Below, piece after piece: positions 5,068 to 11,891 of a DNA stretch of 12,964 bases. The position numbers were made by a program, and so were the translations under genes. How positions within the stretch are numbered: position 1 is the first letter of the stretch; each line of letters starts with the position of its first letter. The notes beneath the pieces were generated by a model, which was not told where the DNA came from, did not search any database, and saw nothing but the letters and a program-made list of their open reading frames with translations. Source of the stretch: a virus; the UHGV virus genome UHGV-0179208; one strand, 5' to 3'.

Positions 5068-5814
5068 TTATCCTCGGATAAGTTTAAAAATTGAACAATT
5101 TAGCGGGTATCCTCTTTTCAGTTTAAGTTTATCAATAAAAGACAAGTTTTGATACCGCTCTACACCTTGAATAATTTTATCACACATATCATATTGCATT
5201 TCTGCTTCTGACAACTTTTTCACAATTTTCCAATCCGAGCCTTTAAGAAGAACGTTCAGTTTAACAACTTCAGCGCCTTCTGCTATGCGAGAACCATCAA
5301 TACGAGCTTTAAGTGCTATAATCCTTAGCTTAATGTCAGAGGTCTGTTTTGATTTAGAAAGCTGAGAAATGTGTTCAATTCGATTTTCACGTTTTTTCTG
5401 TATAGCTTTAATTTGATTATAAGTCTTTTTGATTTTAGCCCATTTCTTTTCATCTAAATTTAGTTTATGAACTTTTTTCGCAGATGAACGACCAATTCGC
5501 AAAGCAAATAAATCACGCTTTTCAATCAACTCTTCTAAAGTATAATCAGAACGAAATGTATTATACTTTTTCTTTACTGCAATAACATTCCCTTTAATGT
5601 ATCCAATGTTATTATCAAAACGTTCTAATGATAATTTCTCTCCTTCAATACGATTATCAAAAGGTTCTCCCGAGTAAGCACAAACTTTTTGATCTAAAAT
5701 GTTCTTAATGTAATTGAAGTCTAAGTTAAAATCTTTAGAACGTCTTTTTGCAGATGCCTGAGTATGCTCTAAACGACGTTTAATTTTACGAATTTGGTTA
5801 TTAGACAGTTTCAT
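5068..5814 (-). CDS. srd-position protein, 248 aa (possible Srd-like regulator); contains a degenerate HNH-like segment
   Basis: ORF track. Position between dda.1 and modA matches T4 srd. Segment CAYSGEPF...LSLERFDNNIGYIKGNV resembles an HNH fold without the catalytic His. Very K/R-rich. Confidence 0.5.
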   Translation of the reverse strand: MKLSNNQIRKIKRRLEHTQASAKRRSKDFNLDFNYIKNILDQKVCAYSGEPFDNRIEGEKLSLERFDNNIGYIKGNVIAVKKKYNTFRSDYTLEELIEKRDLFALRIGRSSAKKVHKLNLDEKKWAKIKKTYNQIKAIQKKRENRIEHISQLSKSKQTSDIKLRIIALKARIDGSRIAEGAEVVKLNVLLKGSDWKIVKKLSEAEMQYDMCDKIIQGVERYQNLSFIDKLKLKRGYPLNCSIFKLIRG

Positions 5815-7410: not shown

Positions 7411-7881
7411 CTAGCGATAAAAACCAAATTGACGATTAGCTTCAATAATCTTTCTTTCTTCTTCGGACATTCTCCAGCGTAGTCCAACATCAAAATGAGC
7501 CCAGACCATCTTAACAAATGCATTTATATCTTTAATATCTTCAATAATGAATGTTTTACTTTTAGAAGGTTGACTCGCTAATTTAACTTTATCGTCTTCA
7601 AACATGTCAAAAAGACCATATTCATGAGCTCTTTTATAGCCTTTAATAGTTAAAGCTTCGGAAGAAGAAAACGGTGAATCAGTATTCTGCAAAATATCTT
7701 CAGTATGCTTTATAATTAGAATAACATTTTCTGGATATTTTCTTTCTTTTATATCTTTAATTAAAAAATCCGGATTTTCTGCTAAAGGAATAATTAATGA
7801 GCATTTTTTACCAAGTGTATTTACTGATTTACCTTCTTTGGACATAAATTCTATTGAATAATGTTTTGCTACTTCAATCAT
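7411..7881 (-). CDS. hypothetical protein, 156 aa
   Basis: ORF track; ATG at 7881..7879 overlapped by the stop of the upstream 54-aa ORF. Confidence 0.65.
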
Positions 7882-8038
7882 GTGATTTCCTTTTGCCTAC
7901 TAATGGACCGTCAGGAATTTTATTTTCCTGGATATACTTCTCATTTTCTTCCATCATTTTACTGCCAATTTTAAGAAGCAAATCCAAGGCTTCATTTGCT
8001 TTAGCCTTTGCCTCTTCTAACGTCATATCTTTGGTCAT
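7874..8038 (-). CDS. hypothetical small protein, 54 aa ([54 protein letters not shown]); absent from the ORF track
   Basis: Manual translation. ATG at 8038..8036 overlaps the TGA of ORF 8035..8238 (ATGA); its own TGA at 7876..7874 overlaps codons 2-3 of ORF 7411..7881. Confidence 0.5.
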
Positions 8039-8238
8039 GATTTATCACCATAGATGTCTCTCATCAATTTAAGCGCTGAGCGTTCTAATTTCTTTTCTTT
8101 CTCAGCACTAATCATTGATTTCATCCATTCTTCTGACTCGTTCTGCATTTCTTTATTTGCTTGTTCAACCCAACCATCATCAATATACATTGAGTTTGGT
8201 CTACTGAACCATTCAAGCATTTTCTTCAGAACTTTCAT
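8035..8238 (-). CDS. hypothetical small protein, 67 aa
   Basis: ORF track; ATG at 8238..8236; acidic and K-rich. Confidence 0.55.
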
Positions 8239-8698
8239 TTACTTTACCCAAAACAACAGTAGGAGCATCATCAAATTCATGAATTTTTAGCAAATTTGGA
8301 TGTAAACTATTCCATACAGAAGAAATAAAGTATGATAACGCATCTTCACTCGCAATTATAAATTTATTTCCTTTATCTATTTTCCAGCTATATACTGAAT
8401 CATACGAATAGAAAGATAAAGGTTTATCATTATATTGTTCTGCGCTAACATTGATGTATTCGGATTTAGTAAATGCTTCAATTGCTCTAAACGGAATATT
8501 TGGTACAGTTTCAATAATTCCGATCTTTTTAAGTTTTATTTCAGCATCTTCTGGAACTGGCATTGAAACAAAATTTTCTACGAGATACATTGGGTCACAA
8601 TAACCCTTATCAATCATTACTGCTACAGTAATTGGAACGTCTTTAGCAAACGACATACTATTACTGCTAATATACATTTCAAACAAAATCGCTTCCAT
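8213..8698 (-). CDS. hypothetical protein, about 161 aa from the ATG at 8698 (ORF track starts at a TTG at 8710)
   Basis: ORF track 8213..8710. First ATG at 8698..8696 is preceded by AGGAAA; the TTG at 8710 overlaps the upstream stop and is less likely. Confidence 0.6.
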
Positions 8699-8706
8699 AA
8701 TTTTCC

Positions 8707-9048
8707 TCAATCACAAGATGTAGATGAACAACTAGAATCACAAGAACTTCCACATGAATCGCCCGTCCATACATGAACAGGAACATTAGTGTCATATGAA
8801 TCAGAACTAGACTGTGTATTCTGCGTATTAGATGATGTAGTAGGTGTTGACCAGCGCCAAGGATTTTTATAATATTCTTGGGCTTCTTCATAAGTCATAG
8901 TAACTGCTTCTACTGTTCCATCTCCCATATAAACATATTCAACTACAGTTAAAGGAAGATAGTCATTTGAAATAGGAACTACACCTTCTCCAGGAGTCGT
9001 AGAGAAAAAATCTTTAAAGAAACTTTTAAACCAATTAAAGATAAACAT
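8707..9048 (-). CDS. hypothetical protein, 113 aa, with Ser/Thr-rich linker and Cys/Ser-rich C-terminal tail ([18 protein letters not shown])
   Basis: ORF track. ATG at 9048..9046 overlaps the TAA of the upstream ORF (TAATG). Hydrophobic N-terminus [11 protein letters not shown]. Confidence 0.6.
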
Positions 9049-9254
9049 TACAAAAAGCCTCTTTTGAATTCGACTTGCTTCTCGCCATAATCATATCGAA
9101 TCTCTGCATTAAATTCGACAGAACCATCTGCGTACATCATAAATGAATGCACAACAACTTCTGTAGACCATGGCTGTAGTTCATATTTCTTCATTACATG
9201 CCGCGAAATGATAATATCTAAATCTTCATTTGGTTTAATCCAACGATTTAACAT
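9048..9254 (-). CDS. hypothetical small protein, 68 aa
   Basis: ORF track. ATG at 9254..9252 preceded by GAGGAG and by the early promoter at 9281..9309. Confidence 0.65.
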   Translation of the reverse strand: MLNRWIKPNEDLDIIISRHVMKKYELQPWSTEVVVHSFMMYADGSVEFNAEIRYDYGEKQVEFKRGFL

Positions 9255-9280: not shown

Positions 9281-9309
9281 ATTATACCATACTCATTTTA
9301 GAAAGTAAA
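9281..9309 (-). promoter_or_regulatory. T4 early-type promoter (minus strand TTTACT-17-TGgTATAAT)
   Basis: Minus -10 TATAAT = plus 9281..9286 with TGG upstream; -35 TTTACT = plus 9304..9309; exact 17-nt spacer. Confidence 0.6.
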
Positions 9310-9320
9310 CCGGTAAAATG

Positions 9321-9346
9321 AAAAAAGGACTCCCGGAGGAGTCCTT
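9321..9346 (-). terminator. rho-independent terminator downstream of soc
   Basis: Inverted repeat aaggactcc (9325..9333) / ggagtcctt (9338..9346) with 4-nt loop cgga. On the minus strand the GC-rich stem is followed by TTTTTTCATTTT. Confidence 0.7.
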
Positions 9347-9620: not shown

Positions 9621-9628
9621 TATTTATA
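9621..9628 (-). promoter_or_regulatory. T4 late promoter core TATAAATA upstream of soc
   Basis: Plus tatttata at 9621..9628 = minus TATAAATA, 32 nt upstream of the soc ATG (9589). The only exact TATAAATA I found on the minus strand. Overlaps the stop of the HNH gene. Confidence 0.7.
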
Positions 9629-10460
9629 ATCCATTTTCAAATCTCTTTATCATGTTTATATAATTTTCGTCAGGATAACCTAGGCTAACTGCTAGTTTTC
9701 TAAAATTGACATATTTAGGTTTGTTGTTATTAATCCATAATTCTCTAAGCTCTTTTTCATAATTCCATTTAAGTTGATTTCTGCGTGCAGTTTTGCTTAA
9801 AGTTTTTCCTTTAGCTTTTAAAGCTTTTTCAGATGACTGTTTTAATTTTTGAATATTTAAAACTTCTTCTATAGATAAATTATTTTCCTTTGAATATCTT
9901 ATGCAAAAATCTTTTACTGCGGCTATTAGGCAATTTTTGTGAGTACCTAAAATTTCTGGGTTATTTTCTTCAACTAAAATTCCCCAATATCTTCGGTAGC
10001 GAGGCATATCTCTTGAAATCCAGTCATTATACCAAAAATCAAAGTTGGAATACATGAAAGATTTTCTTTTACGAAGAGTATCTTGGTTTATCCATTGCTC
10101 ACGTTTATCAGCCCATAACTTAATAGTAAAGTCTTTTTCTGAGTCAGAAAGCTTCTTAAATTGTGAGCTATTTACTGAGGTCATTCTCTGGAATGCATTC
10201 AGCAATCCAAATCTTCCAGTTGAACATAAGAGATAGTGAACATATATGTGTTGATATATTGGGAGATATACTCTATTCCAAGGATGTATTTTAAAATCAC
10301 TATACTCAGGAAATGCGCATTTAGGAAGTATATGATGGGCTTCTGTTTTAGATTTGATGTGAGTGTTTAACTTATATTTATCTATAATTTTTAAGTACTC
10401 ATCTAAAAGTTCCCATTGCGGGAACTTTTCTTTAAGAGCGGATTTGAAATTAATATCCAT
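9624..10460 (-). CDS. HNH-family freestanding homing endonuclease (about 278 aa from the ATG at 10460; ORF track starts at a TTG at 10475)
   Basis: ORF track 9624..10475. HNH motif EAHHILPKC...N.V.L....H...H. C-terminal about 45 aa are about 50% identical to the C-terminus of ORF 10970..11620. Weak Shine-Dalgarno. Start overlaps the 3' end of gene 56. Confidence 0.75.
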   Translation of the reverse strand: MDINFKSALKEKFPQWELLDEYLKIIDKYKLNTHIKSKTEAHHILPKCAFPEYSDFKIHPWNRVYLPIYQHIYVHYLLCSTGRFGLLNAFQRMTSVNSSQFKKLSDSEKDFTIKLWADKREQWINQDTLRKRKSFMYSNFDFWYNDWISRDMPRYRRYWGILVEENNPEILGTHKNCLIAAVKDFCIRYSKENNLSIEEVLNIQKLKQSSEKALKAKGKTLSKTARRNQLKWNYEKELRELWINNNKPKYVNFRKLAVSLGYPDENYINMIKRFENGL

Positions 10461-10968
10461 TATCTTGACGTTCAAAATTATGTTTGTTCTTCAAATAATA
10501 AAGTTTAAAGATTTCTTCAGCCGTAAGACCAAGACCTTGGAACATGTTCAGAACGAAATGAAGAATATCAATCATTTCGAATTTAATTTCCAACTGGTCT
10601 TGTGGAGACAAATCAGTAATCAGAGTTTCACGACGTTCACCATGTTGAGCTTTCCAAGGCTTCCATACAGCAGATGCATCTTTTTCGCCATTGCTCATAC
10701 CACCAAGAGATGTCAGATGTTCACGGAATTCATCATCAATGTAATCTTTCTGATTACGCAGCCAATCAACAACTTCACCAGCAGTAGTCAAATCATCAGG
10801 ATGACGATTATATTCAGGTTTATCTTTAGCTAAACGAACCTGTAGAGATTTCTGCATATCAAGCATAACCTGCAGCGGGTCTTTTTCGTCACCGAGAATA
10901 TCCCAATATTCATTTTGAGCTTTATCTGCACCAGCGATCAGTTGACTACATTCGTTGAAATGTGGCAT
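10450..10968 (-). CDS. 56: dCTP pyrophosphatase (dCTPase-dUTPase, MazG-like), 172 aa
   Basis: ORF track. Size (T4 gp56 is 171 aa as recalled) and position between soc and gene 61. ATG at 10968..10966 preceded by AGGAAA. Sequence not verified by alignment. Confidence 0.7.
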   Translation of the reverse strand: MPHFNECSQLIAGADKAQNEYWDILGDEKDPLQVMLDMQKSLQVRLAKDKPEYNRHPDDLTTAGEVVDWLRNQKDYIDDEFREHLTSLGGMSNGEKDASAVWKPWKAQHGERRETLITDLSPQDQLEIKFEMIDILHFVLNMFQGLGLTAEEIFKLYYLKNKHNFERQDNGY

Positions 10969-10969
10969 G

Positions 10970-11620
10970 TTATTTTTCCTTTCTTATGAAGTTTTCTATC
11001 ATATGTCTATAGCAGATATTAGGATAACCTGCCTTGACAGCTATTTTATTAAATTTTGTGCGTTTAGGTCTATTATTATAAACCCATAATTCATAAAGCG
11101 CATCATAACTATTCCATATTTCTCCTCGCCTAGGATTTGGTAAACCATATCGAGGTGAATTTTTACCGCTAAATCTTCCTTTTCGGGCTTTACTCATATT
11201 AGCCTTGGCTTCATCGGATATAATTTTACCTTTATGAGCTAGACGCATTTTGGCTTTAGTTTCTTCTGGGGTCTTTTTGCCTTTAATCCATGACGGCTTG
11301 CCATATCTAGGATTATTTTCACCCGAGAAAAGAACGGAGTTTTGGATTTTAAGGGTTTCTATTAATCTACTTGTTAATTTAACACCTTTATTATATCGCA
11401 TTAAATTTACAGCATAATGCAATCCTCTCACATCTGGATATATTTTAGTTAATAATCTATGAGCTATAAAATGCTCACGCGCAGTTAACTCAACAAGATT
11501 GTTTTTGCCATCTGTTCCTCCCATACATCTAGGAATTATATGATGGCGTTCTTTATATCCGCCAAGATGCCGGCATTTAGCTTTTGTAATTAAAGCCGAG
11601 TAAATTTTTTGGTAATTCAC
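10970..11620 (-). CDS. HNH-family freestanding homing endonuclease, 216 aa, GTG start
   Basis: ORF track. HNH motif ERHHIIPRCMGGTDGKNNLVELTAREHFIAH; repeated NNPRYGK / KNSPRYGLP NUMOD-like modules; C-terminus paralogous to ORF 9624..10460. Start is GTG at 11620..11618 (in-frame stop at 11636..11638). Confidence 0.8.
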   Translation of the reverse strand: MNYQKIYSALITKAKCRHLGGYKERHHIIPRCMGGTDGKNNLVELTAREHFIAHRLLTKIYPDVRGLHYAVNLMRYNKGVKLTSRLIETLKIQNSVLFSGENNPRYGKPSWIKGKKTPEETKAKMRLAHKGKIISDEAKANMSKARKGRFSGKNSPRYGLPNPRRGEIWNSYDALYELWVYNNRPKRTKFNKIAVKAGYPNICYRHMIENFIRKEK

Positions 11621-11690: not shown

Positions 11691-11891
11691 ATGGTACAAA
11701 AATTAATGGCACTTGTTAATGCCATCAAAGGTAATAAAAAACGTATAGCTTTTACTATTTCTGCTATGATAGGAATTTTACTTTGGAATTTTGTTTTATC
11801 GCCAGTTGCTATTGCTCATGGCGTTAGTATTCCAGTAATTACTCTTGATACATTCGTAGATTTAGCATTTGCTTTAGTTGGGTTAATTTAA
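11691..11891 (+). CDS. plus-strand small hydrophobic protein, 66 aa (two predicted membrane-spanning segments)
   Basis: ORF track. Canonical AAGGAGG at 11680..11686, 4 nt before the ATG at 11691. Hydrophobic stretches IAFTISAMIGILLWNFVLSPVAIA and VITLDTFVDLAFALVGLI. Its stop overlaps the gene 61 stop on the other strand (TTTAAA, 11887..11892). Confidence 0.5.
   Translation: MVQKLMALVNAIKGNKKRIAFTISAMIGILLWNFVLSPVAIAHGVSIPVITLDTFVDLAFALVGLI

Follow-up and report, generated by a model that had tools for sequence, protein, structure and literature searches.

The open reading frame (ORF) at positions 8707–9048 on the minus strand of a stretch of 12,964 nucleotides (nt) from the virus genome UHGV-0179208, referred to here as the window, is essentially certain to be mrh.1 of a T4-like phage (Tequatrovirus), and its product belongs to the family DUF7206. 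Comparison with relatives indicates that the Cys/Ser/Asp tail of Mrh.1 is functional and under strong purifying selection and is not low-complexity noise. The tail carries a family-wide S-C-D-S...[SG]-C-D-COOH signature, which appears to be previously undescribed, since a literature search on 'mrh.1' and 'DUF7206' returned no relevant paper. We tentatively propose, with a probability of roughly 0.3, that Mrh.1 is a putative anchor-spacer-warhead protein, in which the thiol/carboxylate tail would ligate a metal centre.

Identity of the gene and extent of its family

8707–9048, minus strand: mrh.1 coding sequence, 113 amino acids (aa), ATG start, TGA stop at 8707–8709; ortholog of T4 Mrh.1

The product of the ORF scores 104 bits against the Pfam family DUF7206 (PF23836; cut-off 25.6), with an alignment that spans residues 4–113 of the ORF and positions 2–107 of the 107 positions of the model, and it matches PHROG 2031 with an E-value of 4.8e-33. 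It is identical to T4 Mrh.1 (T4p027, NP_049642.1, UniProt P20706) at 111 of 113 positions, is equal in length, and ends in the same tail; the sole substitutions in the window protein are Lys12 for Thr and Thr95 for Ala. The T4 gene is located at T4 14685–15026, and mrh.1 DNA is 80–99% identical across about 500 sequenced Tequatrovirus genomes. The gene order soc-mrh.2-mrh.1-mrh-srh is common to the window and T4, and the order soc, mrh.2, mrh.1, and mrh or srh is also displayed by loci L001–L011. All of the defining features of DUF7206/Mrh.1 that were tested, i.e., a score above the Pfam threshold, the gene order, and the hairpin and tail motifs, were found for the window ORF. A preliminary description of the window had correctly delimited the 113-aa ORF, which lies on the minus strand and starts with ATG, and had missed that it is a known T4 gene. 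mrh.1 itself is not new, being a near-identical ortholog of a T4 gene that has been catalogued for decades and is now filed as a DUF. Its product is strongly acidic, with a net charge of −10.

A profile search of 5.8 billion proteins gathered about 125 clusters, every one of which carries PF23836, and the 44 hits of an exhaustive HMMER search, run over 1.84 billion representatives, were without exception from the same family and contributed few additional members; the latter search revealed no link to any other or characterised family. All members of DUF7206 are derived from T4-like phages or phage-like metagenome contigs, and the named hosts of these phages are Escherichia, Salmonella, Edwardsiella, Serratia, Enterobacter, and Cronobacter. 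The profile search of PDB sequences with Mrh.1 returned just noise at E > 1, and the scan of NCBIfam gave nothing beyond a sub-threshold match to a lanthipeptide precursor, which is discussed below. The PADLOC defence and anti-defence models did not match Mrh.1 or three of its homologs at E <= 1, and a paper on toxIN counter-defence (PMC9391042) makes no mention of mrh.1/DUF7206 genes. Mrh.1 is thus not a member of any characterised metal-binding, ribosomally synthesised and post-translationally modified peptide (RiPP) precursor, secreted, or defence-related family.

A conserved Cys/Ser/Asp tail

8710–8757, minus strand: Cys/Ser/Asp tail, residues 98–113, predicted disordered
8752–8754 (C99), 8740–8742 (C103), 8728–8730 (C107), and 8713–8715 (C112), minus strand: Cys codons in the tail of mrh.1
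8758–8778, minus strand: junction VHVWTGD (W-[TAS]-G-D), residues 91–97, column occupancy 0.92

All four Cys residues of Mrh.1 (residues 99, 103, 107, and 112) are located in the tail, with the spacing C-x3-C-x3-C-x4-C; the preliminary description had quoted the C-terminal 18 residues (residues 96–113, positions 8710–8763) correctly and had miscounted the Cys residues therein as five. The tail was analysed over 129 full-length family representatives, in which overall column identity is only about 27%. The penultimate residue is Cys in 128 of them and the C-terminal residue is Asp in 127, the other two ending in Asn, while position −3 is occupied by Ser, Gly, or Thr. Upstream of the penultimate Cys, at a distance of 4–10 residues (mode 6–8), there is another Cys, usually as part of SCDS, and C-D-S-[GS] is present within the tail of 112/129 representatives. 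The last 25 residues consist of 42.5% Ser, 14% Asp, 13.6% Gly, 8.3% Cys, and 7.7% Tyr, with not a single Lys, Glu, or Leu among 3225 tail residues, and Cys accounts for 0.1% of the family proteins outside the tail. Cys number is two in 121 of the proteins and four in five.

At the level of single positions, S102 (98%), C103 (96%), D104 (94%), S105 (95%), S111 (92%), C112 (100%), and D113 (98%) are conserved, which defines the family-wide motif SCDS-x(3-6)-[SG]CD-COOH with C103, D104, C112, and D113 as its members in the window protein. The (S)SC repeat emphasized in the preliminary description is indeed present in the window protein; however, it represents a T4-clade elaboration of this simpler motif. 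C99 and C107 are specific to the T4 clade, having been added at sites that tend to be Tyr in other clades. The mean number of Tyr residues per tail is 2.0 with two Cys and 0.2 with four Cys (5–7 sequences, mostly from one clade), which is consistent with Tyr-to-Cys (TAT-to-TGT) replacement.

Tail and frame, on whose persistence in related phages the preliminary description had staked its reading, are both kept. When conservation is expressed as the fraction of 114 sequences with the top residue, the tail (residues 98–113, 0.71) is among the two most conserved regions of the protein, together with the hairpin (residues 34–52, 0.72), followed by the junction (residues 91–97, 0.60), the N-terminal helix (residues 1–16, 0.43), a short helix (residues 53–67, 0.12), and the Ser/Thr spacer (residues 68–90, 0.05). 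The alignment also displays WTGDS before the tail in Mosigvirus/Dhakavirus-type proteins.

The terminal codons vary synonymously, with exchanges between TGT and TGC and between GAT and GAC and with TCN<->AGY switches for Ser. The motif is, moreover, retained with three unrelated downstream contexts, i.e., TGAGGAAAATTATG, an overlapping TAAATG/TAATGA, and an unrelated spacer, and the mrh Shine-Dalgarno/TGAGG context is missing in distant relatives that still end in SCD. These synonymous changes and differing contexts demonstrate selection on the tail at the protein level, and they refute overlap with the ribosome-binding site of the next gene as the cause of the terminal conservation.

The same evidence bears on the reading that there is no specific function at all, in which the tail would be a neutral low-complexity sequence or a consequence of overlap with a downstream signal, or in which an overlapping ORF would be the real gene. 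Such a reading could draw on the mrh Shine-Dalgarno sequence, which overlaps the mrh.1 stop in the T4 clade, on the dispensability of the gene in the laboratory, and on the shotgun proteomics of PMC9697503, in which Mrh, Mrh.2, and Srh were detected and Mrh.1 was not. The T4 delta-12 dispensable region covers map units 16,280-3778 (PMC6070864); T4 mrh.1 falls within it and is therefore non-essential in the laboratory. The proteomic non-detection is uninformative, however, because the predicted tryptic peptides of Mrh.1 are 8, 4, 49, 4, and 48 residues long. The terminal S-C-D withstands codon changes and occurs in three unrelated downstream contexts, and the motif persists in 128/129 representatives despite the low overall identity. 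The reading without function is extremely improbable and is effectively refuted already by the codon, conservation, and frame evidence.

The overlapping frame is as follows.

8679–8891, minus strand: out-of-frame His-rich ORF, 70 aa with 8 His, in the +1 frame relative to mrh.1; by-product

This frame is open (69–70 aa) only in T4-clade sequences, and its longest Met-initiated ORF in seven distant loci is 8–21 aa; a real gene in this frame is ruled out since the frame is closed outside the T4 clade. The preliminary description had rightly regarded this ORF as a by-product, although the repetitive DNA from which it was thought to arise is hardly repetitive. Tandem Repeats Finder detected no tandem repeat in mrh.1, and the sole notable direct repeat is one exact 10-nt pair, AATCACAAGA, which encodes two Ser-Cys-Asp triplets; a 9-nt unit in two copies is described below. 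The mrh.1 copy P0006 is annotated so that it runs by frameshift into the His-rich +1 frame.

Modular architecture of Mrh.1

9001–9048, minus strand: N-terminal aromatic amphipathic helix, residues 1–16; AlphaFold2 (AF2) helix 3–15
8893–8949, minus strand: beta-hairpin core, residues 34–52, including EYVYMGDG at 8917–8940; AF2 strands 34–40 and 46–52
8848–8892, minus strand: T4-clade-specific short helix, residues 53–67; AF2 helices 53–61 and 63–67, 34% column occupancy
8779–8847, minus strand: hypervariable Ser/Thr/Asn/Gln low-complexity spacer, residues 68–90, column occupancy 0.09

Upstream of the tail, Mrh.1 is shown to be modular, with an amphipathic helix, a conserved beta-hairpin, and a spacer that is free to vary preceding the disordered tail. 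The N-terminal helix has a hydrophobic moment of 0.56 in the window protein and of 0.69–0.70 in other clades; it carries the charged residues K8, K12, and D13, and K8 (95%) and F15 (96%) are near-invariant. The hydrophobic N-terminus of the preliminary description is therefore aromatic and hydrophobic as claimed, but it is an amphipathic helix rather than a signal peptide or transmembrane segment. Over 19 residues, the Kyte-Doolittle mean reaches at most 0.84, by simple calculation and not with a dedicated predictor. Given the amphipathic N-terminus, this low hydropathy maximum, and the absence of an N-terminal Cys, a secreted protein, lipoprotein, or membrane protein was rejected, and a lipidated or secreted disulfide-rich tail, which had been suggested earlier, is unlikely for a protein without signal peptide, lipobox, transmembrane segment, or N-terminal Cys.

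The hairpin follows the family motif EYVYMGDG-x2-E-x-V, with E37, Y40, G42, D43, G44, E47, and V49 conserved at 96–100% and hairpin residues overall at 88–100%. When modelled by AF2 with the family alignment, it forms the best block, with a predicted local distance difference test (pLDDT) score of about 77–87, and from residue 70 onwards the score is below 50. The model of a Mosigvirus-type homolog displays the same N-terminal helix, hairpin, and disordered tail around a different helical middle, and the predicted template modelling (pTM) score is 0.22–0.30 over the two clades modelled. A fold search with the AF2 model gave nothing in the PDB at E <= 0.001 and family members only in BFVD; as the model is of low confidence, both results are uninformative on function. 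The hairpin does not always accompany the tail, since the distant members P0134 and P0136 keep the tail and lack the hairpin motif.

The spacer includes the polar stretch quoted in the preliminary description, which corresponds to residues 68–88 (8785–8847). Its indels range from 3 to 153 nt and are in frame, apart from two isolated frameshifted sequences. These are P0006, a GenBank record of 141 aa, and L006 2095–2425 on a metagenome contig, and they could be either sequencing errors or genuine pseudogenes. Within the spacer, a 9-nt Asn-Thr-Gln (NTQ) unit occurs twice at 8812–8829 on the minus strand, AATACGCAG AATACACAG; there is one copy in T2/F26, two in T4 and the window, and three in SfPhi01, and the variation is always in frame, with resulting Mrh.1 lengths of 110, 113, and 115 aa. 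A length of 112 aa also occurs.

In other T4-like genera, the two-Cys Mrh.1 proteins (JS98 P0021, IME08 P0014, RB69ORF025c, and those of Enterobacter and Serratia phages) share with the window protein the M-x-x-W/F-L/I-K-x-L-F helix, the hairpin, the W-T-G-D junction, and a Ser/Asp/Gly/Tyr tail that ends in SCDS...SCD. They differ in that their tails carry two Cys and about two Tyr, in contrast to the four Cys and no Tyr of the window protein, and in that their middle is a charged helical or P/T/Y-rich segment instead of an S/T/N/Q spacer. Both kinds of middle are present in the 164-aa variants of Sf24 (L023 453–947), 235Ecol030PP (P0003), and Yersinia phage fPS-90 (BFVD A0A449C3E1), in which a 51-aa insert of the Mosigvirus type (MEEIIRQPEKAGNVG...LPLNSKKLKEHLD...AVSS) separates a T4-type N-terminal half from a four-Cys T4-type tail. 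The arrangement of these variants is evidence of domain-level recombination between genera.

Proposed mechanism and competing explanations

In the anchor-spacer-warhead reading, the helix and hairpin would dock Mrh.1 on a partner or at a membrane surface, and the flexible spacer would let the C-terminal Cys-Asp...Cys-Asp pair reach and ligate a metal ion. The site may be a zinc clasp or hook that is shared by two chains, or the tail may ligate the metal centre of a host protein, and a host factor would thereby be modulated in the course of takeover. In the T4 clade, in which the thiols are raised from two to four through the addition of C99 and C107 and the loss of Tyr, the four thiols could form a self-contained four-ligand site.

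Metal binding is the most plausible of the chemistries put forward in the preliminary description, although it is putative. The thiols themselves appear to matter because Cys is kept at 96–100% even though the sterically similar Ser is one mutation away, and the geometry of the carboxylate appears to matter because both conserved Cys residues precede Asp (94–98%) and Glu is never used. The variable spacing between the two Cys within a Gly/Ser loop would suit a flexible chelate, and the trade-off between Tyr and Cys is consistent with swaps at ligand-capable positions.

Part of the same evidence would be explained by a non-chemical linear motif, in which the extreme C-terminus (S-C-D-COOH) of a disordered acidic Ser/Asp/Tyr peptide is recognised by a matching pocket of a host or phage protein and the peptide could mimic a C-terminal tail or a nucleic acid, with the Cys residues contributing shape and not thiol chemistry. 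The tail is disordered in the AF2 models of two clades and is strongly acidic without basic residues; its conservation reaches its extreme right at the C-terminus, which a carboxy-terminal docking motif would predict, and the rest of the protein, with its low pTM score, resembles short linear elements that would fold on binding. However, retention of two copies of the rarest and most reactive residue at 96–100% in a Ser-rich context suggests that the thiol is needed, and an acidic or nucleic-acid mimic would tolerate exchange of Asp for Glu, which is found at 0 of 3225 tail positions. A linear motif of this kind is possible, albeit doubtful.

Alternatively, the two conserved Cys could form a reversible disulfide on the flexible tail, thereby acting as a redox or thiol-exchange arm that would be a pseudo-substrate or competitor of a host or phage thioredoxin or glutaredoxin, or would form a mixed disulfide with a target. 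The placement of the Cys pair in the last 6–12 residues of a Gly/Ser-rich disordered tail is in line with such a role, as is the nearly always even number of Cys (two in 121 and four in 5 of the 129 representatives). Contrary to the CX2C and CX4C pairs of thiol shuttles, the spacing of 4–10 (mode 6–8) is longer and more variable, and the negative charge of the flanking Asp residues, within a tail that is itself highly acidic, would be expected to increase the thiol pKa and thereby make exchange slower. A redox arm also accounts neither for the requirement for Asp alone nor for the conserved Tyr, and Mrh.1 has no homology to any redox protein. This explanation is unlikely.

Several observations weigh against metal ligation as well. 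Most members have two Cys, which are too few for a single-chain site, so that a second chain or a partner must be assumed. CxxC or CxC spacing was not found in Mrh.1, nor was similarity to any metal-binding family by sequence (Pfam, NCBIfam, and PDB) or by fold. Structure prediction yields a disordered tail, and metals cannot be represented in AF2 models. The trade-off between Tyr and Cys is based on 5–7 sequences, mostly of one clade, and because Ser, Tyr, and Gly codons are one mutation from Cys, the extra Cys residues could be near-neutral. The distant member P0137 keeps the hairpin and ends in ...SSSFD, with no tail Cys. Lastly, the neighbouring genes are not conserved around the most distant members, which weakens any argument from guilt by association.

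It is by such association only that the target of Mrh.1 is probably placed in the host transcription or stress-response machinery. The neighbouring srd, the modA/B-type gene, the two MRH-family genes, and srh have host sigma factors and RNA polymerase as their targets (PMC6070864), and Srh is annotated as 'decoy of sigma32' in the family scan of the window genes. More specifically, the Cys-Asp-COOH tail may constitute an undescribed viral "thiol-carboxylate warhead", i.e., a tethered arm that inserts a thiol and a carboxylate into a host metal site, either as a cysteine-switch-like block of a zinc enzyme or as a zinc clasp; this more specific proposal is speculative and, in our estimate, improbable. 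In the zinc-clasp option, the partner would come from the sigma-32, chaperone, or RNA-polymerase network of the host, which is targeted by the neighbours srh, mrh, modA/B, and srd.

Comparison with known systems

The closest precedents for the proposed tail chemistry are analogies only. In the zinc clasp of CD4/CD8-Lck and the Rad50 zinc hook, a short Cys pair forms a metal site that is complete only with a second chain. Mrh.1 resembles them in having a Cys pair on an otherwise unstructured segment; however, they use CxC or CxxC spacing, unlike Mrh.1, and are related to it neither in sequence nor in fold. Class Ia ribonucleotide reductase alpha, a large enzyme, carries a C-terminal Cys-pair shuttle with CX4C spacing (C754/C759 in E. 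coli NrdA). The likeness to Mrh.1 lies in two Cys that fall within about 10 residues of the end of a flexible tail with Gly and Ser and is again one of analogy, as homology is absent and the Cys of Mrh.1 are Asp-flanked and spaced by 4 to 10 residues. Metallothioneins and SlyD/HypB-type Cys-rich tails share with the T4 clade, as an analogy drawn from general knowledge, Ser-Cys dipeptides in a short Cys-rich segment, whereas Mrh.1 has only four Cys (two in most members) without CxC/CxxC clusters. Neither at least four ligands in CxxC/CxC knuckles nor a family match, either of which would mark a zinc ribbon, zinc finger, or metallothionein, was found in Mrh.1.

The preliminary description had also raised the possibility of a substrate-like peptide. 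In a RiPP-type substrate, the N-terminal part would be the leader, and the Ser/Cys/Asp tail would be the core that a host or phage enzyme modifies by thioether or azoline formation or by dehydration. Mrh.1 has a leader-like region, a spacer, and a Ser/Cys-rich extreme C-terminus, and in this it resembles RiPP precursors such as the FxLD lanthipeptides and the Gly/Ser/Cys cores of the microcin B17 McbA type, in which a Ser/Cys-rich C-terminus follows a longer N-terminal region. Residues 95–109 weakly match the FxLD lanthipeptide precursor model TIGR04363 (E 0.034, 14.1 bits). However, this match is far below the 30-bit cut-off and compositional, and the two-Cys homologs P0009 and P0076 show none. 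No dehydratase, cyclase, YcaO, or radical S-adenosylmethionine enzyme was hit among the window genes scanned, each of which matches a phage family or nothing, the neighbours are not conserved around distant members, and we know of no enzyme of laboratory E. coli for such chemistry. Moreover, the core is usually the variable part of a RiPP precursor, whereas in Mrh.1 it is the most conserved. A RiPP-type role is thus very unlikely.

Gene neighbourhood and expression

9048–9254, minus strand: mrh.2, 68 aa, PHROG 1873; opens the early transcription unit and is translationally coupled to mrh.1, which follows it
9058–9061, minus strand: GAGG Shine-Dalgarno sequence of mrh.1, 9 nt upstream of the ATG, read from the sequence
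8705–8708, minus strand: GAGG Shine-Dalgarno sequence of mrh, overlapping the mrh.1 stop (TGAGG); the mrh ATG is at 8696–8698
9281–9309, minus strand: strong sigma-70-type promoter-like site, TTTACT-17-TATAAT with TG, a near-consensus extended −10 element, upstream of mrh.2
9325–9346, minus strand: terminator-like hairpin, AAGGACTCC-TCCG-GGAGTCCTT and a T-run, directly after the late gene soc

The window represents the early "39-56" region of a T4-like phage, in which nearly all genes are on the minus strand. Family scans identified two homing-endonuclease ORFs, soc, mrh.2, srh, a ModA/B-type ADP-ribosylase, srd, and two MRH-family proteins, and the products of 342, 172, 439, and 227 aa are taken by us, by eye from the ORF translations, to be primase 61, dCTPase 56, Dda, and DexA, respectively. 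The Rfam scan of the window gave no RNA family.

The mrh.2 stop overlaps the mrh.1 start in the sequence TAATG, with base 9048 in common. Synteny was used to look for a conserved phage partner and identified mrh.2 as coupled to mrh.1 in the core genera, and conserved neighbours were not found around Serratia phage PS2 and the metagenomic distant members. The promoter-like site at 9281–9309 would start an early mrh.2-mrh.1-mrh-srh unit, and its position before mrh.2 fits the classification of the T4 mrh.1 RNA as 'early' (PMC9697503, supplementary file 4).

Similar W-[LIF]-K amphipathic starts are found in Mrh.2 (9048–9254), Mrh.1 (8707–9048), and Srh (8035–8238) and in homologs in loci L007–L012, the N-terminal motifs of the three operon proteins being RWIKP, NWFKSFF or xWLKNLF, and SWLKDWL. 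Homology between Mrh.1 and Srh through this shared W-L-K motif was rejected, as hhalign gave a probability of 12% over 12 columns only.

Further along the unit, the two paralogs of the T4_MRH family (PF24070), at 8213–8710 and 7411–7881 (minus strand), correspond to T4 mrh and modA.3. The first paralog is missing from the Mosigvirus/Dhakavirus-type loci L007–L011, in which srh directly follows mrh.1. Srd is the 248-aa product of the ORF at 5068–5814 (minus strand; PHROG 1400, E 2.5e-108), and its N-terminal ~90–160 residues display weaker matches to HNH and endonuclease VII-type PHROGs. Two paralogous homing-endonuclease ORFs of PHROG 655, at 9624–10475 and 10970–11620 (minus strand), flank the dCTPase gene 56, and the second additionally contains a NUMOD3 motif. 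In T4, gene 56 lies between segF and dam; the window differs in its content of mobile endonucleases and does not have dam at that position. A hydrophobic 66-aa protein of PHROG 2024 (unknown function; E 1.9e-30) is the product of the sole clear plus-strand ORF, which is located at 11691–11891 between an endonuclease ORF and primase 61.

Implications for T4-like phages

T4 is the best-studied lytic phage, and many of its early genes, mrh.1 included, are without an assigned function. The odd tail of its product now resolves into a sharply defined motif, restricted to Asp and devoid of Lys and Glu, that is conserved across T4-like phages; those of their hosts that are named are enteric bacteria without exception. 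If the tail does not ligate a host metal centre, mrh.1 stays one more dispensable accessory gene; if it does, Mrh.1 would represent a new kind of small-protein device for host takeover. The tail motif is a modest and easily testable new lead, through which an anonymous DUF is made experimentally tractable.

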